From IMG/VR virus record IMGVR_UViG_2579778535_000004, positions 1-17,059 of that record: a stretch of DNA of 17,059 nt. One strand, 5' to 3'. The stretch comes from a virus (taxonomy: Duplodnaviria; Heunggongvirae; Uroviricota; Caudoviricetes). Made by a program: the position numbers and the translations under genes. Below the pieces are notes generated by a model, which had not been told where the DNA came from, ran no database searches, and worked only from the letters and a program-made list of their open reading frames with translations. Of this stretch, positions 1 to 15,378 are shown in pieces (position 1 is the first letter of the stretch; each line of letters opens with the position of its first letter).

Positions 1-304
1 CTTCTCCCAAACCAAGGTTTTCGAGAGCCGTTTTCACCGTGCCATCCGATTTGATATCACCAAACGGATTCTTGCGGCTTAACAGCAGCGCACGAAGCGC
101 GGTAAGCAGCTGGTCATGCCGCCCCTTCTCCAGGCTGGCACCGGATGCCTCCACCACGCTGCAGAGTTCTTCCTGCAACATGTCAAAGTAGTCATCATCC
201 AGATCGGTGGCAGGTGTGCCGGTCTGGGGGTTACCACGGGTAAAACCGTTCTTACCCGCGCCGAACTTATCCTTCTGCGCGGTTTTCGTGTCTATACGAT
301 GCAT
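1..304 (-). CDS. Putative phage tail fibre protein, N-terminal part (gene continues beyond the window start)
   Basis: Open frame from ATG (revcomp of 302-304) to position 1, translating [29 protein letters not shown]... A GGAG lies 6 nt upstream of the ATG. The tail-fibre assignment is from remembered similarity only and is unverified. Confidence 0.4.
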
Positions 305-307
305 GGA

Positions 308-649
308 TTACTCCGGATATTTAAAAATTACGTAGGTATGCGAAGGGCAGAGTTTGTTAAGCACACACTCGACAACGGTGTCGCCCCAGATACGCAGTGC
401 GGAATCACAGGGACCGGGTTTATTCAGCGCGTCAATCAGGCGATCGCGCTGGTCAAAGCAGTCATCTCCCACCACATAAGCCGTGATGGACGGGCGGAAA
501 GTGATTTTCCCCAGGTCTTCGGTATAGGGTTTGTCGCGGTTCGGGTATTCGTGCGTTTCCACACGACGACCGGTTCCCGCACTTTCTTCTTCAACCTTAA
601 ACGGCACACCGCGAAATGACGCGTCCTGAAGTCTGTCTTTCCACGTCAT
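308..649 (-). CDS. Mu N-like DNA circularisation protein, N-terminal domain only (truncated, about 113 aa versus about 490 aa in Mu)
   Basis: The track ORF 308..691 contains [19 protein letters not shown]...HEYP, typical of the DNA-circulation N-terminal domain. The likely start is the ATG at 647-649, which has GGAG 6 nt upstream. The stop at 308-310 is followed immediately by the next gene. Confidence 0.5.
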
Positions 650-709
650 ATAAACTCCGTACATAAAAAATCCCACCGGAGTGGGACTCATTAACAGATT
701 AATTTTTCA

Positions 710-2545
710 TTACCTGCCAAAGCGCGTATAGCCAACATCATGGCTGACATCAAAACCGCTGGATCGCGTTTCCATAACCCGCATACCCGGAGGCGAATTC
801 ACAAAAGAGACCTTGATCTCACCATCAACTTTTGGCGCAGAAGCTTTGTTGATCATGAAGGGATTCGGGCCTGTGGCACCGGAGGCGTTGTTTGCCTGAG
901 CCGGATCCACCGCCGGATAAGGAGTGTATCCCCGTGGCGGTATTCCCGTCCCATAAGCATCATAAGCACCCGCGCCCCACTGCGCCGAGTTAATGGCATC
1001 GACCGTGTCACCGGAACTGTCGGTAAACCATTCAATAATCGGCTTCAGCTTGTCCCACATATCCTGAAACCACTTAACAACCGGTCCCCAGTTATTGATC
1101 ACCATCCCCAGCGGCGACCAGGCAAAAACCTTCTTCAGAAGTTCCCAGCCTGCCTCAAAATAAGGACCAATAGTTTCCCAGAGCTTCTTGAAATAAGGTC
1201 CGACAACATCCCAGTTAGTGATAATTAATCCCGCAGCCAGAGCAATCGCCGTCGCAATCATGCCAATCGGCGTCATCGACATGATCCTGCTGACAATACT
1301 GATGGCACCGCCCACGCCCATCAATCCCAGTTTCAGAATCGCAAGACCGGCAGCAAGCCCGACGACGCCGCGAATAACCCGGGGATTTTCATCCGCAAAC
1401 TTCGTGAATTTCTCCCCCAACTCCCCCAGCCACTGCGTGATGTTCTTAGCGTCACCAGAAAATGCGCCGCCAATAGCCGCAAGGCCGTTAGTTGCGGTCC
1501 CCGTCATTGCCTCCCACAGGTTGGACAGCGTACCAAGCTGGGCCTGAACACGTTTATTCAGGCTGGCCTGTTTATTCATCTTCTGCTGGATCTGATCGTA
1601 GCCATCCTTTCCTTTATCGATCAGCGCATTGACCACCTGAAGGGTTTCGGCATCATCACCAAATATTGCCTTAAGTACACCGGTTCGCTTAACGTCGGTC
1701 AGTTTTCGCAGCTTTGCCAGTTGCCTGAACATGTTATCAAGACCGCCAAAACTCCCTTTGCCATCAGTAAAATCGAGCTGTACCCCGAGTTTCTGGCGGG
1801 CCATGATTTTATTGACGTCCCTGATTTTCTTAACGCTTAATCCGGACTGGATAACTTTTCGCAGGGCATTACCTGCCGACTCCCCGTTCATCCCCATTTG
1901 ATCCATCATGACACTGATGGGGGCAAGACTCTGTGCAGCCTGAAGACCGTCCTTGTTCACCATCTTCAGAACAGAGCTGGTTTTAGTGAAGAATGACAAC
2001 ATGTTGGTGTCGTCAACGCCCAGATAAAACGCCTTCTGAATTGTGTCGAACAGCCCCATCATGTCTTCTGAGGCCGTTCCGGTAGCATCCTGCATCTTTG
2101 CAGCAAACTCAGCAGCCGCTTCCGGTGTTTTTTTCAGTTGTACCGCAAGATAAGCTGTCGCTTTACCCACACCACCAAGAATGTTTTCTGCCGGGATCCC
2201 CTGACGCACCAGCATCTGCATCATGTTCTGGAAATCAGCCGTTGTACCGGGTAGCTGGTTACCCAGGCCAATAGCCAGTTTATTGATGTCCTGAAAGCTC
2301 TTTCCAACCTCGCCGTTCGCATCCATCATGGCGACTTTCAGCCCGGTGGCGGCGTTTTCCTGATCGGCATAAGATTTCAGGGAAAGCGTCAGACCTGCTG
2401 CCAGTCCGCCACCAAGCGCCAGCCCACCCTGTGACGCTTCTTCCGCCTGGCGTTTAAATCCCCGGATTTTCTTTTGCATTTTCGACAGCGCGGGAGAAAG
2501 CCTGTCGACACCGGTGATCAACGCCTTAAGCTCAAATTCAGCCAT
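710..2545 (-). CDS. Tail tape measure protein
   Basis: 611-aa ORF directly downstream of the chaperone pair. It has an Ala/Gly/Gln-rich helical N-terminal half and hydrophobic, Trp-rich C-terminal segments typical of tape measure proteins. Confidence 0.85.
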   Translation of the reverse strand: MAEFELKALITGVDRLSPALSKMQKKIRGFKRQAEEASQGGLALGGGLAAGLTLSLKSYADQENAATGLKVAMMDANGEVGKSFQDINKLAIGLGNQLPGTTADFQNMMQMLVRQGIPAENILGGVGKATAYLAVQLKKTPEAAAEFAAKMQDATGTASEDMMGLFDTIQKAFYLGVDDTNMLSFFTKTSSVLKMVNKDGLQAAQSLAPISVMMDQMGMNGESAGNALRKVIQSGLSVKKIRDVNKIMARQKLGVQLDFTDGKGSFGGLDNMFRQLAKLRKLTDVKRTGVLKAIFGDDAETLQVVNALIDKGKDGYDQIQQKMNKQASLNKRVQAQLGTLSNLWEAMTGTATNGLAAIGGAFSGDAKNITQWLGELGEKFTKFADENPRVIRGVVGLAAGLAILKLGLMGVGGAISIVSRIMSMTPIGMIATAIALAAGLIITNWDVVGPYFKKLWETIGPYFEAGWELLKKVFAWSPLGMVINNWGPVVKWFQDMWDKLKPIIEWFTDSSGDTVDAINSAQWGAGAYDAYGTGIPPRGYTPYPAVDPAQANNASGATGPNPFMINKASAPKVDGEIKVSFVNSPPGMRVMETRSSGFDVSHDVGYTRFGR

Positions 2546-2956
2546 GTGTGCGTTTCTCCTGCTCTATCCTGTTTGCCTGACTGACCAGTAAGGGAATTTC
2601 ACTGATCGGCATATTCAGCAATTCGAAAGGATTAATGCGCCAGTAACTGGCGCAGTCAAAGAAGCGATCAGTGAGGTATTCAGCCGTCAGGCCTGGAGGA
2701 AAAAACCAGCCACAAGCCACGCCGCTGCATTCAGGTCTGCCGGAGACATCTGGTCGACAGAGCTTTGCGGCACTTTCGCCAGCCGCACAATGTATTTCGA
2801 TACCACATGCGCCAGAAGTCTGACGGACTCATCCTGATTCATCTGGTAGGGATACCCCAGCTCGCGGACATCTTTCCCGGTGGGCTCATCAAACTCCAGT
2901 ACGGAGAGTGTCTCGCCATGAGCGGTAATCGGTTTCTTTAACTCAAGCTCTTTCAT
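2538..2956 (-). CDS. Tail assembly chaperone long form made by programmed -1 frameshift
   Basis: The -1 frame from the slippery site (plus-strand A-run 2701-2706) stays open to the stop at 2538-2540 and matches the C-terminal 55 aa of track ORF 2538..2720 (FFPPGLTAEYL...). The product ends 8 nt inside the tape-measure start. This is the arrangement conserved in phage tail chaperone genes. Confidence 0.55.
2687..2956 (-). CDS. Tail assembly chaperone (short product)
   Basis: 89-aa ORF between the tube and tape-measure genes. Its start overlaps the tube stop as TAATG. It ends just after a T TTT TTC slippery run. Confidence 0.75.
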   Translation of the reverse strand: MKELELKKPITAHGETLSVLEFDEPTGKDVRELGYPYQMNQDESVRLLAHVVSKYIVRLAKVPQSSVDQMSPADLNAAAWLVAGFFLQA

Positions 2957-3312
2957 TACTGGTAATCCCCTTCTTCACCGTGGAACTCAAGATCAACCGT
3001 CCCTTCTTCGGCATTATGGTTTGCTTCGCCGTGCAGCCAGGCAGACGACAGTACATAGACCTGACCGTTCGCCAGCTCGGCTGTGATGGTCATCTCATCA
3101 GACGAGGTGATTTTGCTCACCGGAAAATTCTTCGGCACCTTGAAGGTCCCTTTAACATAAGGCGCACGGTGAGTTTCCTTGCGGTCCACTGAACCGTCCA
3201 GGCCGATGATGTCATCATTGACCGTCCTGTTCATGGGCACCTCAATGCCGCCGGTCAGCGATAGCTGCTGACCGTCAATTTTGAAATAACAGGTTCCCCC
3301 GATACGGGCCAT
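2956..3312 (-). CDS. Tail tube protein (Mu gpM-like)
   Basis: 118-aa ORF placed immediately upstream of the chaperone and tape-measure genes. It has an AGGAG ribosome-binding site, and an upstream reading frame ends TAATG on its start. Confidence 0.65.
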   Translation of the reverse strand: MARIGGTCYFKIDGQQLSLTGGIEVPMNRTVNDDIIGLDGSVDRKETHRAPYVKGTFKVPKNFPVSKITSSDEMTITAELANGQVYVLSSAWLHGEANHNAEEGTVDLEFHGEEGDYQ

Positions 3313-3583
3313 TATGCGGACTCCTCTGAATACTGAAGACGGAACTGGTTAACCACGGCAAAGACACGCAACTGGTTAACATAGTCAGGCGGGAACAGCG
3401 TGTTCAGGCGGTTCGGATCGCTGGCATCACGCTCCACAACCAGGTACTGCTTAAAAAGTTCGTAGTTTTCCACGATCCCCGCACGCTCAAGCTGACGGTA
3501 GCGATGGTGTATTGAGGCTGGCTATCTTCCTTCGCGAAGGATGCAAGGTCTTCAAACTGCTTAGCTGTAAGAACCACTGTCAT
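3313..3583 (-). pseudogene. Gene remnant read in two frames, possibly the 3' end of a tail sheath gene at a deletion junction
   Basis: Minus-strand ATG at 3583 opens a 59-codon frame (MTVVLTAKQFEDLASFAKEDSQPQYT...) that stops at 3404. A second frame, open from about 3521, carries protein-like sequence (...ELFKQYLVVERDASDPNRLNTLFPPDYVNQLRVFAVVNQFRLQYSEESA) and ends TAATG on the tube start, but has no ATG. Confidence 0.3.
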
Positions 3584-3595
3584 ACCTCTGTCGTT

Positions 3596-3619
3596 AAAAA
3601 ACCTCGCTATTGCGAGGTT
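3596..3619 (-). terminator. Intrinsic terminator-like hairpin at the end of the lysis cassette
   Basis: Minus strand reads AACCTCGC-AATA-GCGAGGTT followed by TTTT. The Rz1 stop codon lies in the loop. Confidence 0.45.
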
Positions 3620-3864
3620 CGCGATTGCTCAATCGTTCGGATGTCCGCTTTATCTCTGTTACACTGCCCCAGCGCCAACAACAAGCTGACATTCAAATCC
3701 AAACTGCCTCCATAGGTCAGCGGCTCAGGAATAGCTGGTTGCAGTGTTTCAGTGGTCAGATTCGCCGGTAATGGCACCGCTGGAACTGGCACGTAAACTG
3801 TCCGCGTACTTCCGCAACCGGTCAGCAGCGGCAGCAGGCACAGCACGTGAAGCACAATCATCAT
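3607..3864 (-). CDS. o-spanin (Rz1-like outer-membrane lipoprotein)
   Basis: Alternate frame beginning inside the Rz gene: MMIVLHVLCLLPLLTGC with an LTGC lipobox, then a proline-rich stretch. About 38 codons are embedded in Rz and the frame runs on past the Rz stop. Confidence 0.6.
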   Translation of the reverse strand: MMIVLHVLCLLPLLTGCGSTRTVYVPVPAVPLPANLTTETLQPAIPEPLTYGGSLDLNVSLLLALGQCNRDKADIRTIEQSRTSQ

Positions 3865-4141
3865 CCGCAACAGCCATTTTGATATCTTCCTGGGTTCTCT
3901 GTGACTCCAGTGTGCTCTGCTGTTTTGCATGCTGGTTAGCCTCCAGTACTGTATTGACGATTTGCAGTGATTGCAGGACGTTATTGGTAATGGCAGTTGC
4001 CGATTTGGCATTTTGTACAGCCTCATCAGCACGTTTCTTTTCGTGCTGATATTTGCTGTAGTAGTAGTTGGCTGACCAGATGAAAGAACTGACGACAGTA
4101 AAAAGGAAAGCAGCGATAACCAGCTTATAGCTTAACTTCAT
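3749..4141 (-). CDS. i-spanin (Rz-like)
   Basis: 130-aa ORF with an N-terminal transmembrane helix (LVIAAFLFTVVSSFIW) and a charged, helical remainder. It starts within the 3' end of the endolysin gene. Confidence 0.7.
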   Translation of the reverse strand: MKLSYKLVIAAFLFTVVSSFIWSANYYYSKYQHEKKRADEAVQNAKSATAITNNVLQSLQIVNTVLEANQHAKQQSTLESQRTQEDIKMAVADDDCASRAVPAAAADRLRKYADSLRASSSGAITGESDH

Positions 4142-4601
4142 TTACCACCCCACCAGCCTCTTTAAATCGGGCAATCAGGTCACCGATTTTATGTTCATAC
4201 TGACCGTAACCTGCACCAGGTAACGACGCCCAGATATTGCTGCACCGGTCGATTGCCTGACGGATATCGCCGCGATCAATCATCGGTAAAGCACCTCGCT
4301 CTTTAATCTGCTGCAATGCCACTGCGTCCTGGCTTTTGGGGGAGAAGTCTTTCAGAGCAAGCTGTTTACGGTATGCATCCCACCAACGGGAAAGAAGCTG
4401 GTATCGCCCGGCAGCCGTTGATTTGAGTTTTGGGTTCAGCGTGACAAGTTTGCGAGGATGATCGGAGTAATCAGTGAACAGTTCGCCTCCCACAATAACG
4501 TCATAACCGTGGTTACATGTCGGTTGCCGTCCGTTATCAGTTCCTTCTGACCATGCCACCATATCGAGGAAAGCTTTACGCTGGGAATTTAGTACCTGCA
4601 T
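4125..4601 (-). CDS. R: Endolysin, lambda R-like lytic transglycosylase
   Basis: The 158-aa translation is close to identical to lambda R as I remember it (NSQRKAFLDMVAWSEGTDNGRQ...GYDVIVGGELFTDYSDHPR...DRCSNIWASLPGAGYGQ). Confidence 0.9.
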   Translation of the reverse strand: MQVLNSQRKAFLDMVAWSEGTDNGRQPTCNHGYDVIVGGELFTDYSDHPRKLVTLNPKLKSTAAGRYQLLSRWWDAYRKQLALKDFSPKSQDAVALQQIKERGALPMIDRGDIRQAIDRCSNIWASLPGAGYGQYEHKIGDLIARFKEAGGVVNEVKL

Positions 4602-4604
4602 AAA

Positions 4605-4931
4605 TTACTCCTTAGAGCCACCAAACTTATTACCGATTACTCTCATTGCAGCCCCACGAATAGCATCGACACCGATCAACCCAACGCCACCACCAATGGC
4701 AACAGAAAGCGATTTAGGCCATCCGACATACTCAAGAGCGGATGCAAAAGTCAGCGTCAGAGCGCCACAGAGTAGAATTTCGAGTGTTTTTCGCTTCCAG
4801 CCACCACCACCGCCAAAATAGGCAATGCGCAAACCAGCCATAACAATCGACATAATCACTGCGCCCAGCGGTGTGTCTCCACGCCACCAGCTCTGGACCA
4901 ACTCCAGCCAGGTATTTGGGTTATGAGGCAT
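4605..4931 (-). CDS. Holin
   Basis: 108-aa ORF immediately upstream of the endolysin. It has two to three hydrophobic helices and a charged C-terminus, with GAGGTGAGAG upstream of the ATG. Confidence 0.7.
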   Translation of the reverse strand: MPHNPNTWLELVQSWWRGDTPLGAVIMSIVMAGLRIAYFGGGGGWKRKTLEILLCGALTLTFASALEYVGWPKSLSVAIGGGVGLIGVDAIRGAAMRVIGNKFGGSKE

Positions 4932-5082
4932 TTGTAGTTATCTCTCACCTCGCTGATACAGCAGGTGCAAATTGAGGAAACATCATGTACCGCAAATCAG
5001 AAGCGGAAACGTCAAAGAAGCCGAGTCAATGGATAACTGCGGGATAGACCAGGCCCAACGAATCCCTAGGCCCAGAAACGAC

Positions 5083-5105
5083 AAAACCCGCTCGACGGCG
5101 GGTTT
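5083..5105 (-). terminator. Perfect 8-bp-stem hairpin, possible tR'-like terminator of the late leader
   Basis: AAACCCGC-6 nt loop-GCGGGTTT. On the minus strand the stem is followed by TTTTGTCGTTTCT. It sits between the cassette and the holin. Confidence 0.3.
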
Positions 5106-5151
5106 AAGCTGTGTGGCGAAGTAACCACTCTTAACAGATTACAATGATTTT

Positions 5152-5179
5152 TGCGTACGCGTTAGCATTTTCGTAAAAT
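5152..5179 (+). promoter_or_regulatory. Candidate sigma70 promoter for the nuclease-methyltransferase cassette
   Basis: TTGCGT at 5152-5157, a 16-nt spacer, then TAAAAT at 5174-5179, about 30 nt upstream of the ATG at 5211. Found by eye only. Confidence 0.25.
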
Positions 5180-5210
5180 ACATTACCTTGCAACCATTTC
5201 AGTATAAAAA

Positions 5211-7001
5211 ATGAGCACAGAATTAAAACTAAAGAAAATTATGGCATCGTCTAAAATTGAGCCATTTATTAGACATATTCGTTTTCCTTTTTTTAAAAAC
5301 CTTGCAGAGGGTAGCAAGATTGATTTTGAGTATCCAATTACAGCATTAGTTGGTCAAAACGGAACCAATAAAAGTTCTGTTTTAAGAGCCCTATTCGGTT
5401 CTCCAAACAACTATTCTCTGGGTAGCTTATGGTTTTCTACAGATGTAGATGAGATTAAAGATGGTGGTCGTTCTAGATTTATTTATGGATATTATGACAA
5501 AGCTACTGATTCAATTGTTGAAGTAATTAAAACTCGAATCTCTAAAGAAAATGATCCTGATTACTGGGAACCATCCAGACCATTAAAATCCGACAACATG
5601 GCTCCAATGCCTAGTACAACAATCTCAACCAATCAACTAAGGACTAGGTGGAAAGCTATTGACAAAAATGTAATATATTTAGATTTCAGAGCAACTATCA
5701 GTGCATTTGATAAGTTCTTTTATCACTCTGATTTTCATACATACCCTAAGAAAGATTATCTTAGAAAACGCAGTCAGATGCTAAAAGACATTATAGATAA
5801 CGATCTTAAAAAATATCAACCTCATAAAGGAAAAAAAGACAAGCTATTTGTTAACACTTTATTAGAAAAAAGTAAGGTAGAGGCAATCAGCAAGATTTTA
5901 GGTCGCAAATACACAAGCATCCGCCTTATTGAACATAGCTTATTCACTAATGACAAAGCTCCCACAATTATTCTTCAATCAGAAAACTTAAAATATTCTG
6001 AAGCTTTTGCAGGCAGTGGGGAATTTGCTGTATCTATATTAGTGCATAAACTAATGGATAGCCCTGATGCATCTTTAATTCTGCTAGATGAACCTGAAGT
6101 ATCACTTCACCCTTCTGCTCAATGTCAATTGATGGAATTTTTATCAGAACAAGCACTTAAAAAGAAACATCAAATTGTCATATCCACACATTCATCAACA
6201 ATAGTAAAAGACTTGCCTAAAAATGCCATAAAATTATTCTGTCTGAATGATAAAATAGGAAAGGTTGATGTTCTTCAAAATGTCAGTCCAGAAGAATCTT
6301 TCTTTATTCTTGGTGAACGCATTGATAAAAGAACCGTTATTGTAGAAGATCGGTTAGCGAAGAGGTTTGTAGAAAAGGCGCTTAAAGCGGGTGGTGAAGC
6401 ATTATTAAACTCCTTCGAAGTAAAACATGTTCCTGGAGGAGCGGGAAGTATTCTTCAAACTTTGGCTGTGCCTTTATGTGTTGCCAATGTTAAAAACGTT
6501 ATTTTCTTATTAGATGGTGACCAATCGAGAACTGATGATTATCCAACTTCTGATTCCATACCAGAAAATCAAAACACAAACCTTCAAAACATCATAAAAA
6601 AAATAACCAATCAAGATATAAAATTTAGTTGTGATGGTTCTAATGGCTCATCAAATAACAATCAAAAATACAAAATGCAAAGAAATTTTATCGATTTCAT
6701 CCACGATAAAATTGCTTTTCTTCCTGTTTATACTCCTGAAGCATTTCTTATTGAGAATGTTCATGGTGATTATAAAGAATATAAAGATCAAATCCCCAAA
6801 AACATTCAAGATGCTAAAGAAATCACCAAAGAACTTTGTAAGTTAGACACAGGGTTGGAGAACGTTACCAGTGACGATATCTTTGAAACACAAATCAGAA
6901 TTCTTAATAAAATACCAAATAATCATGAAGTGTTAACAAAAACTCGAGAGTTGCTGCAAATCTTTTTAGATAATGATACTATCAGACCAAGAGTGAGGTA
7001 G
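5211..7001 (+). CDS. Predicted OLD/Gabija-GajA-like nuclease: N-terminal ABC-type ATPase fused to a C-terminal TOPRIM domain
   Basis: 596-aa ORF with a P-loop LVGQNGTNKSS, Walker B ILLDEPEVSLHP, a STHS H-loop-like motif, and a C-terminal TOPRIM pattern (TVIVEDRLAKRF...NVIFLLDGDQS, about 60 aa apart). Hand counts give about 27-30% GC here versus about 45-55% in flanking lines. Confidence 0.65.
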   Translation: MSTELKLKKIMASSKIEPFIRHIRFPFFKNLAEGSKIDFEYPITALVGQNGTNKSSVLRALFGSPNNYSLGSLWFSTDVDEIKDGGRSRFIYGYYDKATDSIVEVIKTRISKENDPDYWEPSRPLKSDNMAPMPSTTISTNQLRTRWKAIDKNVIYLDFRATISAFDKFFYHSDFHTYPKKDYLRKRSQMLKDIIDNDLKKYQPHKGKKDKLFVNTLLEKSKVEAISKILGRKYTSIRLIEHSLFTNDKAPTIILQSENLKYSEAFAGSGEFAVSILVHKLMDSPDASLILLDEPEVSLHPSAQCQLMEFLSEQALKKKHQIVISTHSSTIVKDLPKNAIKLFCLNDKIGKVDVLQNVSPEESFFILGERIDKRTVIVEDRLAKRFVEKALKAGGEALLNSFEVKHVPGGAGSILQTLAVPLCVANVKNVIFLLDGDQSRTDDYPTSDSIPENQNTNLQNIIKKITNQDIKFSCDGSNGSSNNNQKYKMQRNFIDFIHDKIAFLPVYTPEAFLIENVHGDYKEYKDQIPKNIQDAKEITKELCKLDTGLENVTSDDIFETQIRILNKIPNNHEVLTKTRELLQIFLDNDTIRPRVR

Positions 7002-7004
7002 ATA

Positions 7005-8045
7005 ATGGCTAAAAAGATACACGTTTACGATTTCTTTTCCGGCTGCGGCGGAACCAGTGTAGGCCTAAAAGCGGTGGGAATGGAAATTATTTTCGGTTTA
7101 GATATTGATCTAGACTCCGCTAACACCTTTAAAATGAATAATCCATTTGCACATTTTATCAATGGTGATATCAAAGATACACACGTTGAGGAAATTAAGC
7201 ATCTGGTTTGTGCGTCAACACAAAGCAAAGCTCTAACCCTATTTTGTGGTTGTGCTCCATGTCAACCATTCTCGAAACAAAATAAAATACGGAACGAGGA
7301 TGATCCGAGAAAAGATCTGCTTACTGAGTTTGCACGGTTTGTCTCTTATTATACGCCAGACTTTGTACTGGTAGAGAATGTACCAGGAATCCAAAATGTC
7401 GATATTAACAATGGAAATTTCCAGAAATTTCTTGAGATTTTAGCACATCATCACTACAACGTTGATTTTGGTGTGATTCCTGCGTTGTGGTTCGGGGTTC
7501 CTCAAACACGTGAACGTTTTGTTTTACTGGCGTCAAAACACACGAATATTAAGCTTCCATCACAAACTCATGATGGGTTAAAAACTCCGTATGCAACTGT
7601 CAGAGACTGGATCGGCGGATTACCTCCTATTGCTGCCGGTGAAACTCATAAAGATGTTATGGATCATACAGCAGCCAAACTATCTGATCTAAATATTAAA
7701 CGTATTAAAGCGACTCCTGAGGGAAAAGGTAGAGAATCTTGGCCTGAAGAACTTATACTAAAATGCCATAAAAAATATAAAGGGCATACTGATGTTTATG
7801 GACGGCTTTCTTGGGACAAACCAGCAAGTGGATTAACAACTAGATGTATAAGCTATTCGAATGGACGTTTCGGACATCCAGAGCAAGATAGGGCTATTTC
7901 TGTTAGAGAGGCTGCGTTATTACAGACTTTCCCATTAGACTATTCCTTCACAGGCTCTTTAGTCTCGAAAGCCAAACAGATAGGGAATGCAGTCCCTCCC
8001 AAGATGGCTGAAGCTCTTGGAAGGGCTATCATCGCATCACTTTAA
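7005..8045 (+). CDS. DNA (cytosine-5)-methyltransferase
   Basis: Motif I FSGCGG, motif IV GCAPCQPFS with the catalytic Cys, motif VI LVENVPG, motif VIII PQTRERF, motif X QIGNAVPP, in canonical order. The ATG is 4 nt after the upstream stop, so the two genes are probably co-translated. Confidence 0.9.
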   Translation: MAKKIHVYDFFSGCGGTSVGLKAVGMEIIFGLDIDLDSANTFKMNNPFAHFINGDIKDTHVEEIKHLVCASTQSKALTLFCGCAPCQPFSKQNKIRNEDDPRKDLLTEFARFVSYYTPDFVLVENVPGIQNVDINNGNFQKFLEILAHHHYNVDFGVIPALWFGVPQTRERFVLLASKHTNIKLPSQTHDGLKTPYATVRDWIGGLPPIAAGETHKDVMDHTAAKLSDLNIKRIKATPEGKGRESWPEELILKCHKKYKGHTDVYGRLSWDKPASGLTTRCISYSNGRFGHPEQDRAISVREAALLQTFPLDYSFTGSLVSKAKQIGNAVPPKMAEALGRAIIASL

Positions 8046-8055
8046 AAGCGGAGCC

Positions 8056-8412
8056 CTAGAGGGCTTCGCCTAACAATAATAGAATACCTGATATAAACCC
8101 TATAGCTCCCTGAAGCTCTTTTCTAATTGCTCCATCAGAGCATTTTCTTTTCTTAGCAATGGTGCGTAATGAGATACCAATCACAAAATGAGCAATGATC
8201 AGCTCATATTCTTCTGGTTTATACTTCCGCAGGCGGGCGACACAGCCATCAATCATGATGCCTTCATCATCATCACACTGAATCCGGGACTTTCTGCCAT
8301 GAGGTAAAAGCCCCTTGAAGCCAGCGGCTACCGGTTGCCAATCCACACCACTGTTCTCTGCCGCAGCCCACGCTCCCCAACGGTCTAATACTTCATACAT
8401 ATCACACATCAA
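8056..8412 (-). CDS. Late-gene antiterminator Q (Phage_antitermQ family)
   Basis: 118-aa protein with VLDRWGAWAA...AAGFKGL...CDDDEG...C, matching the Q family of several lambdoid prophages as I recall it. It sits between the nin-like genes and the lysis region. Confidence 0.8.
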   Translation of the reverse strand: MMCDMYEVLDRWGAWAAAENSGVDWQPVAAGFKGLLPHGRKSRIQCDDDEGIMIDGCVARLRKYKPEEYELIIAHFVIGISLRTIAKKRKCSDGAIRKELQGAIGFISGILLLLGEAL

Positions 8413-8426
8413 CTTTCTCCACCAAA

Positions 8427-9422
8427 TCAGGCTAGCACACCAATTGCCAACGCACGGTCGATAAAACGAAATATCAGCTCCAGCTGGGAGCCATACTTCT
8501 CTTCAAATGCCACGGTATCCGCATGCAGCTCGTCGTGATGCTTTCTGCACAAAGGCAACACAAAGAGGTCATGCGCTTTTGTACCCATTCCGCCCTGACC
8601 GTGGCCTATCAGGTGGTGGGGATCATCAGCAGGTTTTCCACAACATGCGCACGGCTGCGTCTTAACCCAGCGCGTGTACTTTTCATTAACCCAGCGGTGA
8701 CGTTTTGGGCGTAACATAAAAGACTCCGGCGACTCCGGATCCACTTTCAGCGCCAGCACCTTTTTCGCCTTATCCTGGATGATGCTGGTGGCAGGAACCG
8801 AAGGCACAAGGTCACTTTCCCGGGTAACAGACGGCACAACAGGCTTCGGTAATCTCAGTGCCTTACGGGCTGCACTTTCCGGTAAGGCATCCGCCAGATC
8901 ATTACGAATCAGCCACCAGCACAGTTCCGGCATTGTCACAACATGACTGTCATCAAAACCGAGATCCCGACGCACAACAGACAACACCCAGCGGGCACAG
9001 TTATCCGTTGCCATTGATTCCAGCCGTTCCGTGAACTGATCGCGCAGCTGGTTATCGCAGTGCCAGCACAGACGGATTGCGCCCGGAGCGTGTCGCATTG
9101 TTGTCATGTTCTCGCTGTGCCAGTCGGAATGAGGCCACTGGCAGCCTTTTTCACGAAGTAACCAGCTTTCAAGACATTCCACGCCACCAGCACGACGGAT
9201 CACTGCCTCATTGCGGAACACGGCCAGAACGGCAGGATCATCCGCCAGCGGTTGTGATGCCGCCGGAACAGCACCACTGGCGAAAGATGAATAACGTTCC
9301 GGCTCAGGCTCCAGCAGGACACGCCCCTGCATAAACAGGGGCATCAGCTCTGAACCTGGTCTGAACAATACGATCCCCATACGCGGGGCAATTTCAGGGG
9401 TCAGTAGTGCTCTCACGGTCAC
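8427..9422 (-). CDS. DUF968-family phage protein with an HNH-like zinc-finger C-terminus
   Basis: 331-aa ORF whose C-terminus reads CACCGKPADDPHHLIGHGQGG...LPLCRKHHDELH. Its position next to Q matches the usual placement of DUF968 genes in lambdoid prophages. Confidence 0.7.
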   Translation of the reverse strand: MTVRALLTPEIAPRMGIVLFRPGSELMPLFMQGRVLLEPEPERYSSFASGAVPAASQPLADDPAVLAVFRNEAVIRRAGGVECLESWLLREKGCQWPHSDWHSENMTTMRHAPGAIRLCWHCDNQLRDQFTERLESMATDNCARWVLSVVRRDLGFDDSHVVTMPELCWWLIRNDLADALPESAARKALRLPKPVVPSVTRESDLVPSVPATSIIQDKAKKVLALKVDPESPESFMLRPKRHRWVNEKYTRWVKTQPCACCGKPADDPHHLIGHGQGGMGTKAHDLFVLPLCRKHHDELHADTVAFEEKYGSQLELIFRFIDRALAIGVLA

Positions 9423-9423
9423 C

Positions 9424-10233
9424 TCAATGAACGGTATCGAGCAGCTTTAACAGCTCAGGGAATCGGGATTCGAAGAAATGCGGCTGCGTCTCGCGCGGAT
9501 TTGCGGGACTGGTGATGTTCTTGCCGAACATGCAGCCTTTCGCTGTCAGTGACCAGAATTTTTTGATGTTGTTAATCGCGGTACGGCTGTATCGTTCGCG
9601 CTGCTCGACGATCCCCAGTTTCACCATCTGGTGATATGCCTGATTAGCCGTCAGGCGGATACCATACTGTTTCAGCAGTGCACTCAGTGACAGTGTCGGG
9701 CGACTTGAGCCATCGTGTGCATCAGCAGGAGCATCAATGGCATAGCGCGGTGCCAGATTCGGTAAGCCAACAGCCTCCTGGAGTTTCTGACAGGCACCAA
9801 GCACTGAAGAGTTAGACAGGTTTAACTCCCTGCGCATAAAGTCCAGCAGAATCACTCCAGCCTGCATCTTGTCAGCAGCCTGCCCGGATAATTTTTCCGA
9901 TGCGCTGGTTACCATATCGAAAGTACGGATCACCTTCAGATGGAATGACGGGCTGATCCACATTGCATAGGCATACACCAGTTCTTTGCAGACATACGTC
10001 CCCTGGTTATTTCCGCCATTAATGACGCTAACTGGTTGATTTTGTTCCAGAGGTGGAATTCCACCCTCGGTGAAAAGTTGTTCAATCAATTCACAGGTTT
10101 GCTTATTGGAGAGCCAGTATTTCGGGCGGTTTTTTTGTTCTCCCCCGGCTGCCCTGTGCAGATCGTTCAGGCTGTAACGCCCATAAGCATCACGACGAAC
10201 TTCAATACCATCAATGACCATCAGATTATTCAT
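9424..10233 (-). CDS. KilA-N domain protein (antirepressor-like)
   Basis: The N-terminus MNNLMVIDGIEVRRDAYGRYSLNDLHRAAGG...KYWL is a typical KilA-N domain. The internal ATG at 10231-10233 is preferred over the track start because AGGAG lies about 7 nt upstream. Confidence 0.7.
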   Translation of the reverse strand: MNNLMVIDGIEVRRDAYGRYSLNDLHRAAGGEQKNRPKYWLSNKQTCELIEQLFTEGGIPPLEQNQPVSVINGGNNQGTYVCKELVYAYAMWISPSFHLKVIRTFDMVTSASEKLSGQAADKMQAGVILLDFMRRELNLSNSSVLGACQKLQEAVGLPNLAPRYAIDAPADAHDGSSRPTLSLSALLKQYGIRLTANQAYHQMVKLGIVEQRERYSRTAINNIKKFWSLTAKGCMFGKNITSPANPRETQPHFFESRFPELLKLLDTVH

Positions 10234-10252
10234 ACTTCGTTTCTCCTCTTGA

Positions 10253-10642
10253 TCAGGCGGCTGCACCCGCCGTTTTCTCGTACTTACTGATAGTGATCTC
10301 GACCTTCCCTTCCGGGATAACCGGTCCCCACTCCACCAGCATTCTTTTCACCTGACTGTCGTCTTCCCACACACCCGCGTGGGTCAGGGCGTCAAACAGC
10401 GCCTTGTTATAGTTGTCCAGATCGCGGATCCGGTTATCCGGAGGAAACAACACGATCTCCACTGAAGCAGGTGCCGACGTTGGTTTTGGCAGACGACGTA
10501 ACTGCTCAACTATTGCTGCACACGCCGCGCTCTGGAATTTGCGCCCCGCCGCGCTTATCAGGCTCTTACCTGCAAACGCCCCTTGGTTGGGGTGTCGCCA
10601 GTACGTGTTCACGCTGGGCGGAAAAGGCAGTATTAGCTTCAT
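10253..10642 (-). CDS. rusA: RusA-family Holliday junction resolvase
   Basis: 129-aa protein with LPFPPSVNTYWRH...RDLDNYNKALFDALTHAGVWEDDSQV, the RusA signature. Its start forms an ATGA overlap with the upstream gene. Confidence 0.85.
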   Translation of the reverse strand: MKLILPFPPSVNTYWRHPNQGAFAGKSLISAAGRKFQSAACAAIVEQLRRLPKPTSAPASVEIVLFPPDNRIRDLDNYNKALFDALTHAGVWEDDSQVKRMLVEWGPVIPEGKVEITISKYEKTAGAAA

Positions 10643-10965
10643 ACTTTCAGCTCCCTCTCATGTAACCAGTGGGCTGCACGCAGCCTGGCGTTTTCCTCAC
10701 CGGCAAGCAGTGAGCGGATAATCCCGACCGCCTCGCTGTCGTCGTCCTTCACCGCGGTATGAAGCGTTATCCCCCGGGCCACGCCACGCTTTATCGTGAT
10801 GACGCCTTTTTTCTCCAGTGCGCGAAGATGCTCCACCGCTGCATTCACTGAACGGTATCCCAGCATGGTTGCCACCTCCTGATTGGTTGGCGGAAAGCCA
10901 CGCTCTTTCTGGTAAGAAATCAGCATATCCAGCACCTGCTGCTGGCATTGAGTTAACGTCGTCAT
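10639..10965 (-). CDS. LexA-like N-terminal DNA-binding domain protein with no peptidase domain
   Basis: MTTLTQCQQQVLDMLISYQKERGFPPTNQEVATMLGYRSVNAAVEHLRALEKKGVI parallels the LexA winged-helix domain. The start at 10963-10965 is chosen because it overlaps the upstream stop as TAATG. Confidence 0.6.
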   Translation of the reverse strand: MTTLTQCQQQVLDMLISYQKERGFPPTNQEVATMLGYRSVNAAVEHLRALEKKGVITIKRGVARGITLHTAVKDDDSEAVGIIRSLLAGEENARLRAAHWLHERELKV

Positions 10966-11459
10966 TACGCCCCCACGTAATTCCCTGACAGATACCACTC
11001 ATCACTCGATACAGCGCGCTTGCTGCTTTTCCGTAAACACTGCTCACGACGCGCCAGAAAATTGTTTCGTTCTGGCTGGGAGTGGCTTTCACGGAATGCC
11101 ACCACCCACACCGTTGCAGCACGACGGTATAAGCCCCTGGACTCCAGTTCTTCCGCCTGGCGGGTCAGGCACAAAATCTCCCGCGGGTCGTTAGTGCCGA
11201 CATAGAAATTGCGCACAGGTCTGGTTTCACGAACTGATTGCGGTTCCGCCTCCTGCGCTCTCTCAGTCAGGCGCGGGAAATGTCTGCGTGTATCCCCTTC
11301 ACAACGGTGAGCCACACGACCACTCTGACGTAACTTGCTTGCTGACTGCAGAACGCGCTGCCGTGAGTAACCTGCAAAAGCATCCGCAATGTCTCCGGAA
11401 GTACACCCCGGATGGGCTTCAATGAATTTCTGAACGTCATTCAAAAGACTCATGCTCAC
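10965..11459 (-). CDS. Putative PerC/Pch-like regulator
   Basis: The C-terminal half has RGLYRRAATVWVVAF...ARREQCLRKS, resembling the GLWRRAA-RW motif of PerC-family activators. This is a memory-based call and unverified. Confidence 0.4.
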   Translation of the reverse strand: MSMSLLNDVQKFIEAHPGCTSGDIADAFAGYSRQRVLQSASKLRQSGRVAHRCEGDTRRHFPRLTERAQEAEPQSVRETRPVRNFYVGTNDPREILCLTRQAEELESRGLYRRAATVWVVAFRESHSQPERNNFLARREQCLRKSSKRAVSSDEWYLSGNYVGA

Positions 11460-12397
11460 CCCCTGAATCCTGCCGGGATCTGGCTGTAGTCCACGTTGTC
11501 GTAACTGGCTTTGAAGTACGGGTCTTCGCGTTTTTCGGTGTACGTGCTGACGGACGGCGATAAGCGCAGGGAAAGCTCATCCCATTTTTCCCGCAGCTTC
11601 GACGGGCTGAGCACGTTACGGCACCAGAACGGATCGCGACTGACGCGGCTGTACATCTCGCAGATTTGTTTATGAGTACGACCATCCTGCACACACATCA
11701 GGCGAATTTCGTTTGCCCAGGCTGTCCAGTTCGGTTCTTTGGGACGAACCACCTCGCCGTCACATTCGGCGGCCTGCTCGTACAGGGCGATGATTTTTTT
11801 CCAGAGCCACTGTGCGCAGGTCAAATCATCCTGCGTTCCCCACTGGCGCTTTTTAGGGCTGAATACAACCGCATCAGGATGGCGAGTTAAAAACTCCTGT
11901 TCAGCCGTCTGCGTGTCCGGTTGCGAAGCGTCCGGACGAGAAGTTTTTTTATCTGACGGATCATGTTTTGATTTTACTGACGGATCCCCGCCAGATTCTG
12001 ACGGGTGAAAACCCGCTTTTTTGCCAGATTTCGACGCATCAAATTTTGACGGGTCAGATTTTGATGCGTCAGATTTTGACGGGTCAGAATCTGACAGTTG
12101 AGAAAATGCCGCTGCCTGAAGCTTCGCAACGTTAAGCTGATAAACATTCGACGCATTGCGGTTACCCTGGCGACGCGCCTTACGCGTTAACCAGCCTTCT
12201 GCTTCCAGCCGTGCGATAGCCGTCCTGACGGTACTCATCCCCGCGCCAATCTGACGGGCAATAGTTTCAATTGATGGCCAGCACACACCTTCGTCATTAC
12301 TGAAATCAGCCAGGCGGGCCATAATTGCCACGCTGGATAATTTCATGCCTGATGCAGCGCAACCATCCCATACATAGCCGGTTAATTTAGTGCTCAT
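11456..12397 (-). CDS. Replication initiator-like protein (N-terminal HTH domain, repeat-encoded linker, C-terminal domain)
   Basis: 313-aa ORF with an N-terminal winged-helix region and a central SKSD-type peptide repeat encoded by tandem DNA repeats. It occupies the position of a lambdoid O gene after the cro and CII-like genes. Confidence 0.55.
   Translation of the reverse strand: MSTKLTGYVWDGCAASGMKLSSVAIMARLADFSNDEGVCWPSIETIARQIGAGMSTVRTAIARLEAEGWLTRKARRQGNRNASNVYQLNVAKLQAAAFSQLSDSDPSKSDASKSDPSKFDASKSGKKAGFHPSESGGDPSVKSKHDPSDKKTSRPDASQPDTQTAEQEFLTRHPDAVVFSPKKRQWGTQDDLTCAQWLWKKIIALYEQAAECDGEVVRPKEPNWTAWANEIRLMCVQDGRTHKQICEMYSRVSRDPFWCRNVLSPSKLREKWDELSLRLSPSVSTYTEKREDPYFKASYDNVDYSQIPAGFRG
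11948..12098. repeat. Tandem 15-bp direct repeats (iteron-like) inside the replication initiator gene
   Basis: Five contiguous 15-bp units between 12024 and 12098 (TCAGATTTTGACGGG and variants), plus three degenerate copies back to 11948. They encode the linker of the initiator. Confidence 0.55.
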
Positions 12398-12406
12398 GAC
12401 CGACCT

Positions 12407-12745
12407 CTATTTCCCTGAATTTACGACGAAACTGTTCGAGCGGACTGAAGCACTCATGCTCATAGCCTTCGCGGAGGTAGATAACCCGTTGTGTTTCCGG
12501 TTCCCAACGAATGACTCTGACGGGCACTCCGTAGTGATCTTTGAACCAGCGGTTAACTTGTCGCAAAGGACTGTCTCCTTCTGCCGGTTGAAATCACCCA
12601 CAGCCCACTCTGCAAAGCTGTGGGTTACAATTTCCCTGTCACCTGGTACATTTACTGCATAGCAATACTCCACCTTCGCTTTTCCACCCGGTACAGGAAG
12701 CGCAATCAGTTGCGAGCGACGGTAGTGTGTTGTTAAACTGTTCAT
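12407..12745 (-). CDS. Hypothetical phage protein with an ambiguous 3' reading frame (possible frameshift)
   Basis: The N-terminal half ([53 protein letters not shown]) looks protein-like. The Ser-rich tail of the listed frame looks less so than an alternative frame (12387-12593, ...[56 protein letters not shown]) that ends overlapping the next gene's start. Confidence 0.4.
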
Positions 12746-13305
12746 GCGTTAGTTTCTCCACAGTCACGACACGCCACGGCGCCCGGAGCTGCACACTCGC
12801 GGGCGTCATTACTTTCTGAAATGCAAAAGATTTTGTAGACCAGTGCTGCATGCTCCTGCAGCTTCGAAATTGAGAGATATAGCTCGTCGTTAATTGCTGT
12901 TTTCTCATGCGGTTCCACTACACCGTCTTCGATTGCTGAACGAATCTGTTTTGAATAACTGCCGATCTGTTCAATGACTTCCAGCAGACGCTGGTTAATA
13001 TCGGCGTTGTCCACATCCTCGACGTCAGGAAGAGACACAAATACGCCATTTGCAGACTGCGCCACAGCATCAGCAATGAAGTGAGTGCCACCAGCACGCT
13101 GTAAAACCATTGCCCATCCCAGCGGAAAAATCTGATCGCCATCTGCACGAAGGCGGTTGAATAAAGCGTTCTCTGTTACATCCAGCCAGTCAGCCGCTTC
13201 AGCGTAACCACCCGGCAACGCCGCGATAGTTTTTCTGACAGCTTTCACGTACCACTCAGGCTGTTTTTCTATTTTCCAGTGATGCTTACCCACGATTAGC
13301 CTCAT
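12742..13305 (-). CDS. Putative CII-like regulatory protein
   Basis: 187-aa ORF immediately downstream of the cro-like gene. The family assignment is from weak remembered similarity and position only. Confidence 0.4.
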
Positions 13306-13336
13306 CGTTCTGTGGTTAAAAATTGAAAGTGTTCTG

Positions 13337-13537
13337 CTAATCTTTCGGATAGATATCCGGTCTTAAGTCAGATTTCGTAATTGCACCTGACGTGCATTGC
13401 TCAAGTTTTTTAGCCAGCACAAAACTGGCTTTTTTATAGCCATTGAAAACCAGCCGTAAGTAGCCAGGTGTTGAGCCAACTTTTCCGGCCAACTCGCCCT
13501 GCTGTTCTTTGGTTAAAGAGTCCCAATACGCTTTCAT
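13337..13537 (-). CDS. Cro-like HTH regulator (YdaS-type)
   Basis: MKAYWDSLTKEQQGELAGKVGSTPGYLRLVFNGYKKASF...SDLRPDIYP. GGAGG lies 9 nt upstream of the ATG at 13535-13537. It is divergent from the CI-like gene. Confidence 0.65.
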   Translation of the reverse strand: MKAYWDSLTKEQQGELAGKVGSTPGYLRLVFNGYKKASFVLAKKLEQCTSGAITKSDLRPDIYPKD

Positions 13538-13591
13538 ACAATATGTACCTCCGGTGTACATACTACATGATTAAAATGAACCTTCAAGATA

Positions 13592-13612
13592 CTTGTACCT
13601 TAACGGTACAAG
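13592..13612. promoter_or_regulatory. Palindromic operator in the CI/cro divergent promoter region
   Basis: CTTGTACC-TTAAC-GGTACAAG, with perfect 8-bp arms, overlapping a candidate plus-strand promoter (TTGTAC, 17 nt, TTTAAT) whose start site would fall at the CI ATG. Confidence 0.5.
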
Positions 13613-13627
13613 GGTTTTAATTTCGTT

Positions 13628-14302
13628 ATGAAAACAATCCATGACATCCGGCGGTCTAACGCCAGAAAACTGAGAGATGGTGTAGGCGGGAATTCTTCCT
13701 TTGCCACTATGATTGATCGCGAGCCAACCCAGACCAGCAGGTTTATGGGAGATGGTGCTACTAAAAATATCGGTGACAGCATGGCACGACACATCGAAAA
13801 ATGTTTCGACCTGCCTGTCGGATGGCTCGATCAAGAACACCAGACAACCAACATCACAAAAAAACCTGATGTTTCAATCACTAATAAACAAATCACATTA
13901 GTCCCTGTCATATCATGGGTACAGGCCGGAGCATGGAAAGAAGTTGGATATTCTGAGGTTGATTTGAGCACAGCAGAAACGTATCCCTGCCCTGTACCCT
14001 GTGGGGAAATGACTTATATCTTGCGGGTGATAGGTGATTCAATGATTGATGAGTACCGCCCGGGAGACATGATTTTTGTCGATCCTGAAGTACCTGCCTG
14101 CCACGGTGACGACGTTATTGCATTGATGCACGATACAGGTGAAACCACCTTCAAAAGGTTGATAGAAGATGGGACACAGCGTTATCTCAAAGCGTTAAAC
14201 CCAAACTGGCCTGAGCCTTACATTAAGATCAACGGTAATTGCTCTATAATTGGAACTGTGATTTTCTCAGGAAAACCAAGAAGATACAAAATCAAAGCCT
14301 AA
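13628..14302 (+). CDS. CI-like repressor (HTH plus S24 LexA-type autopeptidase domain)
   Basis: 224-aa ORF with an N-terminal HTH, an Ala-Gly cleavage site (VQAGAWKE), the catalytic Ser in VIGDSM and a Lys in TFKRL. Confidence 0.85.
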   Translation: MKTIHDIRRSNARKLRDGVGGNSSFATMIDREPTQTSRFMGDGATKNIGDSMARHIEKCFDLPVGWLDQEHQTTNITKKPDVSITNKQITLVPVISWVQAGAWKEVGYSEVDLSTAETYPCPVPCGEMTYILRVIGDSMIDEYRPGDMIFVDPEVPACHGDDVIALMHDTGETTFKRLIEDGTQRYLKALNPNWPEPYIKINGNCSIIGTVIFSGKPRRYKIKA

Positions 14303-14314
14303 TCAATGTTTATG

Positions 14315-14337
14315 AACCTGCTTCGGCAGGTTTTTTT
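14315..14337 (+). terminator. Rho-independent terminator after the repressor gene
   Basis: AACCTGC-TTCG-GCAGGTT followed by a run of seven T. Confidence 0.65.
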
Positions 14338-14341
14338 ATAC

Positions 14342-14374
14342 TTGACAATGTACCTTTGAGATACATAATGTATC
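14342..14374 (+). promoter_or_regulatory. pL-like promoter with an overlapping palindrome (candidate operator)
   Basis: TTGACA at 14342-14347, a 16-nt spacer, then CATAAT at 14364-14369. The palindrome GATACAT-A-ATGTATC (14360-14374) covers the -10. Confidence 0.4.
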
Positions 14375-14473
14375 CAAGAGAAACAAAAAACAGGCAGGAC
14401 GCCCACGAAGTAGCCGCCGGTGGCGTATGAATGACCGGATGATTCGTTAAATACTATGTGTAAGAGAGCGCAA

Positions 14474-14677
14474 ATGAACCGTTATTTCACATGCTCGTTT
14501 TGTGGCGCAAACGAGCTGCAGGCAAAAAAAATCATCGCCAAAGGCGGAAAAGATGAAGTTGCTATCTGCTCTGAGTGCGTAGTCTTGTGTGTCGGGGCAT
14601 TAATCAATATCAGCACAACTATTCAGTTCACACCAAATGAGAATGCGCCTTTAGATGCGCGGAAATCTGGAGGTTAA
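14474..14677 (+). CDS. Small zinc-ribbon protein resembling the ClpX N-terminal zinc-binding domain
   Basis: FTCSFCGANELQAKKIIAKGGKDEVAICSECVVLC parallels the ClpX zinc-binding domain (CSFCG ... ICDECV-LC). The start is taken at the internal ATG at 14474, preceded by AGAGAG. Confidence 0.5.
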   Translation: MNRYFTCSFCGANELQAKKIIAKGGKDEVAICSECVVLCVGALINISTTIQFTPNENAPLDARKSGG

Positions 14678-14685
14678 AGAACAAA

Positions 14686-15124: not shown

Positions 15125-15378
15125 TTGATTTTCCTTTTATGTATACGGGCTTAAAAGGATACCACCGAGCCTGAAGTGGTGAAAAGACAGGCACATAACA
15201 GCTAAGTATTTTCAACCAGAGAGAATCCTTAGCGTTGTGGTGAATGCGGCTCAGCGCACACGGGTTAAGGTTGAGGCTGACAGTCGACCTTCTGTGGATA
15301 CCCACCCGCCTGGTGTGCAACCTTCGCCAGGCACCGGGAGGCACCCGGCACCACAACTTTATGCTGTGTGTAGTCTTA

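Follow-up and report, generated by a model that had tools for sequence, protein, structure and literature searches.

When a nuclease gene and a DNA methyltransferase gene lie side by side in a prophage, do they belong together, and if so, what would they do? This question is raised by a cassette in a tailed-phage record of the IMG/VR database (IMGVR_UViG_2579778535_000004), of which positions 1 to 17,059 were analysed; this whole stretch of 17,059 nucleotides (nt) is called the window here. The cassette consists of two co-directional open reading frames (ORFs), both starting with ATG, at 5211-7001 (plus strand, 596 amino acids (aa)) and 7005-8045 (plus strand, 346 aa). A preliminary description had read them as an OLD/Gabija-like nuclease, with an ATP-binding cassette (ABC) ATPase at its N-terminus and a TOPRIM-like C-terminus, and a cytosine-5 (C5) methyltransferase that might act together in a restriction-modification (R-M)-like way. 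We found that the two genes do form a pair, with a nearly obligate linkage in many phyla and in phages.

Linkage of the nuclease and methyltransferase genes

Relatives of the nuclease were collected by scanning one genome per species, which gave 80 bacterial loci from Proteobacteria, Actinomycetota, Acidobacteriota, Bacteroidota, a Clostridium metagenome-assembled genome, Patescibacteria and others. The flanks of each locus were fetched (up to 6 kb), and a C5 methyltransferase was sought in them by tblastn with the window methyltransferase. It was present in 74 of the 80 loci; the six negatives comprised three contigs that end at or inside the nuclease gene and three loci that adjoin other defence genes. 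Among viral loci from IMG/VR, the methyltransferase was found in 60 of 62, both negatives being truncated at the nuclease gene. Taken together, the pair was observed in 134 of 142 loci, and five of the eight negatives were truncated contigs. A reverse test started from three methyltransferase homologues (Hafnia, Burkholderia and Pasteurella), picked solely for their long contigs and blind to context. In all three, a gene for a 587-606-aa AAA_15/AAA_21 protein was located directly upstream, and the contexts differed: one pair lay between antiterminator Q and the holin, one next to an integrase and one next to a prophage repressor. Chance adjacency of nuclease and methyltransferase is excluded by these data, and the survey of co-occurrence that the preliminary description had proposed as a check came out in favour of a pair. 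Genetic linkage of a nuclease gene to a methyltransferase gene, as found here, is also a feature of Type II R-M systems.

The commonest order among pairs with called ORFs was nuclease followed by methyltransferase on the same strand, which was observed in 36 loci with gaps of -17 to +26 nt; the genes overlapped by 1 to 17 nt in 14 of these 36 adjacent pairs. The identities of the two proteins to their counterparts in the window co-varied (Spearman 0.61, p 8e-6). Clustering of the neighbours in 83 loci revealed no other neighbour conserved in more than 11 loci, and no conserved helicase cluster was found among them. In the window, the 3-nt gap that had been noted between the two genes was borne out by the ORF list and by the junction sequence GTG AGG TAG ATA ATG (6995-7007, plus strand). 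Here a GAGG Shine-Dalgarno motif within the end of the first gene, 7 nt ahead of the second ATG, is followed by the TAG stop, the gap and the ATG of the second gene. This operon-like junction is compatible with translational coupling of the nuclease and methyltransferase genes.

Further operon forms were observed. The methyltransferase gene may precede the nuclease gene, or the order may be methyltransferase, a GHKL ATPase (HATPase_c_3 and Hypoth_Ymh), nuclease and Vsr, a GHKL variant found in about seven loci. In about nine loci of Bacteroidota, the methyltransferase is followed by a 990-aa HEF_HK GHKL protein, Response_reg_2, the nuclease and Vsr. Vsr adjoins the nuclease in 11 loci. In six loci of Flavobacteria (L048, L053, L061, L065, L068 and L081), the nuclease is the third gene after an M.HpaII-like methyltransferase and R.HpaII (PF09561, 8e-147), with genes overlapping by 1-4 nt, which indicates that the nuclease can be added to a complete R-M pair. 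The window-type and HpaII-type methyltransferases form two clades that are 25-29% identical. Operons composed of C5 methyltransferase, GHKL (HEF_HK), Response_reg_2, nuclease and Vsr have been described by Bellieny-Rabelo et al. 2021 (PMC8011034), who found the nuclease slot most often occupied by HNH; HNH_2 and other nucleases are named for that slot, and no ATPase-TOPRIM protein is mentioned. The window-type protein fills this slot in the Bacteroidota operons, and the substitution argues that it is a DNA-cleaving effector of 5-methylcytosine (m5C)-based systems. MORC-containing R-M systems were described by Iyer et al. 2008 (PMC2292703), and the parallel to MutL-like GHKL proteins was drawn there.

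Rare members of the family have no C5 methyltransferase nearby (L042, 4759-5475; L082, 19-5860 and 7793-13668). Their neighbours are an AspBHI-like N-domain of m5C-dependent restriction enzymes, a GmrSD-like protein and large helicases (UvrD-like, DEAD/ResIII and MrfA-like).

Domain architecture of the two proteins

The first gene (5211-7001, plus strand) encodes a protein with the N-terminal ABC ATPase of the OLD family. Its N-terminal 340 residues match AAA_15 (1e-15) and AAA_21 (2e-13), both above the Pfam cut-offs, and an alternative start at Met11 would give a 586-aa form that is found in some NCBI records. In an alignment of 22 homologues with 43-84% identity, the Walker A motif GQNGTNKSS (Lys54; 5352-5378, plus strand) follows the consensus GxNGxNKSS, with G48, N50, G51, N53, K54, S55 and S56 invariant. 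The ABC signature-like stretch YSEAFAGSGEF and the Walker B/D-loop LILLDEPEVSLHP (Asp293, Glu294) at 5994-6113, and the H-loop STHS (H327) at 6183-6194, all on the plus strand, are likewise invariant alignment columns, and the Walker B motif of the alignment reads LDEPEVSLHP with D293 and E294. Motifs, Pfam matches and fold all agree with the ABC ATPase that had been proposed for this end of the protein.

The C-terminal part has the conserved glutamate and DxD motif of a TOPRIM domain. Its core (6336-6746, plus strand) comprises VIVEDRLA (Glu379), PGG (408-410), LLDGDQ (Asp435 and Asp437) and TPE (Glu510), and E379-D380, P408-G410, D435-G436-D437 and P509-E510 are invariant in the 22 homologues. 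It is followed by an all-helical region (6747-6998, plus strand; helices at residues 520-588 in the AlphaFold2 (AF2) model), for which no significant family match was found. Searches of Pfam, NCBIfam and PDB sequences, including profile searches, gave no named domain in the C-terminal 245 residues; in particular, no Pfam TOPRIM or OLD model matched any of 17 C-terminal sequences at E <=10, and the C-terminal profile had no PDB sequence match. A DpnI_C-like helix-turn-helix (HTH) in the C-terminal helices (E 0.09) was treated as noise. The profile searches suggested in the preliminary description therefore recovered AAA_15, AAA_21 and DNA_methylase but not TOPRIM or OLD, and the TOPRIM-like C-terminus that it proposed stands on the invariant residues and on the fold. 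The whole-protein AF2 model has a predicted local distance difference test score (pLDDT) of 86, and its best full-length Foldseek matches are OLD of Thermus scotoductus (6p74) and structures of GajA, as the description had anticipated; the ATPase fold also resembles PtuA and the heads of SMC and Rad50.

The best PADLOC models for the protein are HEC-04 (2.3e-36) and ATPase-Toprim_I-B (3.5e-25, residues 253-484), the latter of which we take to be the effector of retron type I-B. The C-terminus alone still matches HEC-04 (1.4e-6). We conclude, as far as residues and predicted fold can tell, that the 596-aa protein is built like OLD-family enzymes and that its ATPase and TOPRIM sites are apparently intact. 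The nuclease relatives form a distinct, bounded family: only 589 cluster representatives out of 1.84 billion match the C-terminal profile (E <=1e-3), and most full-length members are 580-630 aa long. The family corresponds to phrog_3940 in PHROGs, where it is listed as of unknown function. No close homologue of the nuclease was found in 50,697 GenBank phage records, yet it occurs on 62 IMG/VR viral contigs.

The second gene (7005-8045, plus strand) encodes a complete C5 methyltransferase, as had been described. It matches PF00145 over model positions 2-323 of 324 (8e-59), TIGR00675 (1.5e-41) and PADLOC MTase_II (5e-91). Judged from its sequence, it has all catalytic motifs of a Type II methyltransferase on the plus strand: I (7032-7052), IV with PCQ (Cys86; 7248-7274), VI (7368-7388), VIII (7500-7520), IX (7890-7934) and X (7983-8000). 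Among 37 nuclease-linked methyltransferases, the target recognition domain (TRD; aa 185-290) is 66% identical to the window residue vs 51% for the catalytic N-terminal half. Such unusual conservation of the TRD suggests that the linked methyltransferases share one target specificity, and would fit a nuclease co-adapted to a single motif. One 68%-identical homologue carries the automated label 'Modification methylase HgiDII', which is insufficient to assign the target motif. The best sequence matches among solved structures are the catalytic domains of eukaryotic DNMT1 (2e-34), vs 4e-19 for M.HaeIII and 5e-13 for M.HhaI.

Prophage setting and the cargo slot

The window is a lambdoid prophage of the Escherichia coli ymfL/DUF968/KilA-N type, and the cassette sits between antiterminator Q and the holin on the strand opposite to these flanking phage genes. 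Q (8056-8412, minus strand; PF06530, Phage_antitermQ, E 9e-44) is convergent with the cassette, and the lambda-family holin (4605-4931, minus strand; PF05106, E 6e-25) is the first gene of the lysis cassette. The GC content of the cassette is 0.358 (0.332 for the nuclease gene and 0.404 for the methyltransferase gene) vs 0.515 in the left flank and 0.526 in the right flank. Position, strand and composition were all correctly reported in the preliminary description. Deviant GC, opposite strand and a slot whose content varies among sister prophages mark the cassette as a moron, or cargo, of the prophage.

Both cassette ORFs are real genes. A 99%-identical cassette was found in 8 of 5426 complete E. 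coli genomes of RefSeq, where the products are named 'ATP-dependent nuclease' and 'DNA cytosine methyltransferase'. About ten more complete E. coli genomes carry a nuclease allele with about 71% nucleotide identity over the aligned 5' part, and in both loci of this allele that were opened, a methyltransferase gene is again paired with it downstream of Q. Strains with the cassette include E. coli C4, LR-03 and A21. The intergenic region upstream of the cassette (5107-5210, plus strand) is, by its position, the presumed promoter region. A consensus scan of 5107-5210 found no promoter above threshold or chance upstream of the nuclease gene; TTGCGT-17 nt-TAAAAT, spotted by eye in the same region, is a weak promoter candidate.

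In sister prophages, the same slot holds either the 71%-identical allele or unrelated cargo. The slots downstream of Q in L089 (2851-4462) and L090 (1523-4384) hold differing cargo: one contains two hypothetical genes, and the other combines a DUF262 protein and a HEPN-like nuclease with another C5 methyltransferase. This slot behaves as a hotspot for defence cargo. A query joined from the holin side and the Q side found no cassette-free junction covering at least 80% of it.

Several features of the surrounding prophage were observed in addition. Positions 5000-5190 of the window are about 90% conserved in more than 2400 E. coli genomes and are partly found in lambda, 434, Stx2 and Sf phages. 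A terminator-like hairpin, AAACCCGCCGTCGAGCGGGTTT, with a T-run lies at 5084-5105 on the minus strand, which is the late-gene strand. This hairpin is probably a tR'-type terminator, which would place the cassette between Q and the late promoter/terminator region. The lysis genes, all on the minus strand, are the holin at 4605-4931, a 158-aa ORF (4125-4601) that has no Pfam match and occupies the position of the GH24 endolysin in L001, and a DUF2570-like gene (3749-4141) whose weak match is below the Pfam cut-off. Two tail genes come directly next, one for the tail tube (2956-3312; PF10618) and one for a tape-measure-like minor tail protein (710-2545; PF10145). Between lysis and tail genes in window positions 710-4931 (minus strand), genes for terminase, portal and capsid are missing, and in the relatives L001 and L002 this place is occupied by HNH, terminase, portal and capsid genes; the prophage looks mosaic or partly deleted. 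Some sister prophages have an extra gene for a 350-aa 'DNA-methyltransferase' just upstream of the holin (L003, 5470-6522; L089, 1184-2236), besides the Dam-like phage methyltransferase of the early region. Several methyltransferases have therefore accumulated in this prophage family.

Possible function and relation to known systems

The reading that we favour, and to which we give an even chance of being right, is that the cassette is a mobile two-gene R-M-like defence and addiction module that travels as prophage cargo. The methyltransferase would mark one conserved motif in the DNA of the lysogen with m5C and thereby protect self. In the 596-aa OLD-family enzyme, the ABC ATPase would control a metal-dependent TOPRIM nuclease, and the enzyme would nick or degrade incoming DNA that lacks the m5C mark. 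The target might be recognised by the nuclease alone, as in GajA, or through a complex with the methyltransferase; GajA acts on a specific sequence (PMC8136825). The prophage might also be stabilised through post-segregational killing, like other R-M pairs. Such a role is supported by other cargo of a defence-like kind in the slot downstream of Q of sister prophages, such as the DUF262 protein with the HEPN nuclease. It is also supported by HEC-04, the closest model, whose anti-phage activity has been demonstrated by experiment and depends on Walker A and on the E/D/D residues.

Several points weigh against this proposal. Nuclease activity, methylation sensitivity, a protective role of the methyltransferase and an anti-phage function are steps that we infer. 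To our knowledge, no TOPRIM enzyme is known as a restriction endonuclease. The isolated TOPRIM domain has only weak Foldseek matches (best E 0.028), with GajA, OLD and PARIS among the top five, and domain searches identified no DNA-reading or methyl-reading domain in the nuclease. In the six HpaII loci, the nuclease comes third after complete M.HpaII and R.HpaII genes and so is not the sole restriction nuclease there. The nuclease gene comes first in the cassette and has no controller (C) protein, which looks risky for establishment in a new host; no HTH family was found among ten small upstream ORFs of relatives. In addition, HEC-04 confers defence by itself, with no methyltransferase, and its induction is toxic (Payne et al. 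2024 preprint). Activity of HEC-04 alone implies that a methyltransferase is not intrinsically required by such a nuclease.

The last of these observations, together with the HpaII loci, also bears on a guard or back-up system of the PARIS or PrrC-like kind, which we consider unlikely. The ATPase-TOPRIM protein would be an abortive-infection effector and the methyltransferase its guarded or scaffolding partner, and the effector would fire when a phage protein inhibits or evades the methylation or restriction machinery, so that the two genes would not stand in a protector-nuclease relation. The position of the nuclease after complete M.HpaII/R.HpaII pairs and inside larger GHKL-containing R-M-like operons fits such a guard. 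The related HEC-04, which is active alone, was discovered inside Hma, a system that contains a methylase, and the nearest solved relatives, AriA/AriB, PtuA and GajA, come from families that include sensors of anti-restriction proteins. Most loci, however, contain just the two genes and no restriction enzyme that could be guarded, and a lone methyltransferase gives no immunity that would be worth inhibiting by a phage. A link at the level of the substrate agrees better with the conserved TRD and with the co-variation of the pair.

It is less probable still, and in our view doubtful, that the system works like Metis. In that case, m5C would label the host DNA, and 5-methyl-dCMP or a derivative, freed when a phage degrades the chromosome, would bind to the nucleotide-binding ATPase and thereby switch on the TOPRIM nuclease in an abortive response. 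The methyltransferase would then not be protective, and the pair would be a self-contained cytosine-methyl counterpart of Metis built on an OLD-family enzyme, a version that we hold to be equally doubtful. The Metis preprint shows sensing of m6dAMP and predicts both systems with their own methylase and systems that sense methylated cytosine, and the title of PMC8136825 calls GajA, a relative within the OLD family, a nucleotide-sensing endonuclease. Strict linkage to m5C methyltransferases of two clades would also be explained, with no need for the nuclease to recognise sequence. The conserved TRD would nevertheless be irrelevant if the modified nucleotide alone were sensed, domain searches detected no PUA-like or other modified-base-binding domain, and the frequent Vsr and R-M-type partners point to a function at the DNA level. 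The proposal is built purely by analogy.

Vsr is also the starting point of a repair explanation, in which the ATPase-TOPRIM protein would process T:G mismatches or lesions arising from m5C deamination, as an analogue or helper of Vsr, MutS or MutL, and would make up for the mutations to which the methyltransferase gives rise. Linkage of Vsr to C5 methyltransferase genes is classical, Vsr lies beside the nuclease in 11 loci, and these operons also include GHKL ATPases of the MORC/MutL-like type, for which PMC2292703 has drawn the parallel. Co-occurrence of Vsr and the nuclease in one operon nevertheless shows that the nuclease is not a replacement of Vsr. All close relatives of known function are defence nucleases, and prophages and integrative elements carry the pair in slots for defence-type cargo, so we regard a repair role as highly improbable. 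Finally, the two could be imagined as unrelated neighbours, a stand-alone defence gene of the OLD-like kind and an orphan methyltransferase of the phage with an anti-restriction or epigenetic role, since lambdoid phages often have orphan methyltransferases, this prophage family has Dam-like and other methyltransferases and HEC-04 works alone, but this reading is essentially refuted by co-occurrence in 134 of 142 loci (five of the eight negatives truncated) and in three of three reverse look-ups, and is opposed by overlapping genes, co-varying identities and a pair kept in unrelated contexts across phyla.

If the R-M-like reading is true, an ATP-dependent TOPRIM enzyme of the OLD family would join the nucleases that work with a protective methyltransferase, and a further OLD class, defined by its partner, would stand beside the stand-alone, helicase-linked, retron-linked and Gabija forms. 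How OLD enzymes tell self from non-self is still unclear, and the pair would then offer a tractable example with one m5C motif as the mark of self. With its small size of 2.8 kb and its natural occurrence in E. coli prophages, the system lends itself to direct tests. Its spread over many phyla and phage genomes bears on phage-phage competition and on barriers to gene transfer, as well as on annotation by defence finders, since such pairs are now labelled only 'ATP-dependent nuclease' and 'DNA cytosine methyltransferase'.

By architecture, the window protein is an OLD-family member in the broad sense. With P2 Old, which is phage-borne like the window protein, and with the Class 1 (6p74) and Class 2 (Burkholderia, 6nk8) enzymes, it shares an N-terminal ABC ATPase, a C-terminal TOPRIM domain and a length of about 590 aa. 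It differs from them in its low identity (about 11-17%), and Pfam and PDB sequence searches with the window C-terminus find nothing. Among the OLD classes of the Chappie laboratory, Class 1 is said to lack a conserved partner, Class 2 to go with a UvrD-type helicase and Class 3 with retrons. We know of no described OLD class with a C5 methyltransferase as partner. A pair of an OLD/TOPRIM enzyme and a C5 methyltransferase was likewise not found described in the full-text literature, a scope that did not extend to REBASE or the newest defence-finder releases, and the pair may already be catalogued as a 'putative Type II system'.

Likeness to Gabija is found in GajA, an ATPase-TOPRIM endonuclease that is among the top fold matches, and in PADLOC matches over the Walker B region. 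The protein is not Gabija, because neither the window nor the related loci contain a GajB helicase, the partner being a methyltransferase; of the 'OLD/Gabija-like' assignment in the preliminary description, the OLD part is therefore kept. HEC-04 (Hma-embedded candidate 04; PADLOC PDLC04149) is an ABC-ATPase/TOPRIM fusion that defends E. coli and is inactivated by the K62A and E319A/D375A/D377A mutations (Payne et al. 2024 preprint). Like the window protein, for which it is the best-scoring model, it joins an ABC ATPase and an OLD-like TOPRIM domain in one polypeptide, and the Glu-to-DxD spacing is 56 and 58 residues in both. The best matched stretch covers positions 155-386 of the 494 in the HEC-04 profile. 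HEC-04 is a stand-alone gene embedded in Hma (Helicase-Methylase-ATPase), whereas the window gene is not embedded in Hma and belongs to a family of about 600 aa that is almost always found beside a C5 methyltransferase. Identity with PARIS or with a retron effector was rejected: PARIS is split into two proteins, AriA and AriB, and is triggered by anti-restriction proteins, and the effector of retron type I-B needs a reverse transcriptase and multicopy single-stranded DNA (msDNA), neither being present here.

With Type II R-M systems that have a C5 methyltransferase, the cassette shares the compact mobile pair of methyltransferase and nuclease, the low GC, an occasional Vsr and an addiction-like logic. 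Known restriction endonucleases have PD-(D/E)XK, HNH, GIY-YIG, PLD or half-pipe folds. The window nuclease has none of these ATP-independent endonuclease folds; it combines an ABC ATPase with a TOPRIM fold and presumably requires ATP, and the TRD of the window family is conserved throughout rather than diversified. Compared with operons of the Bellieny-Rabelo and Iyer type, the window cassette is a minimal two-gene form without GHKL, response-regulator-like and Vsr genes.

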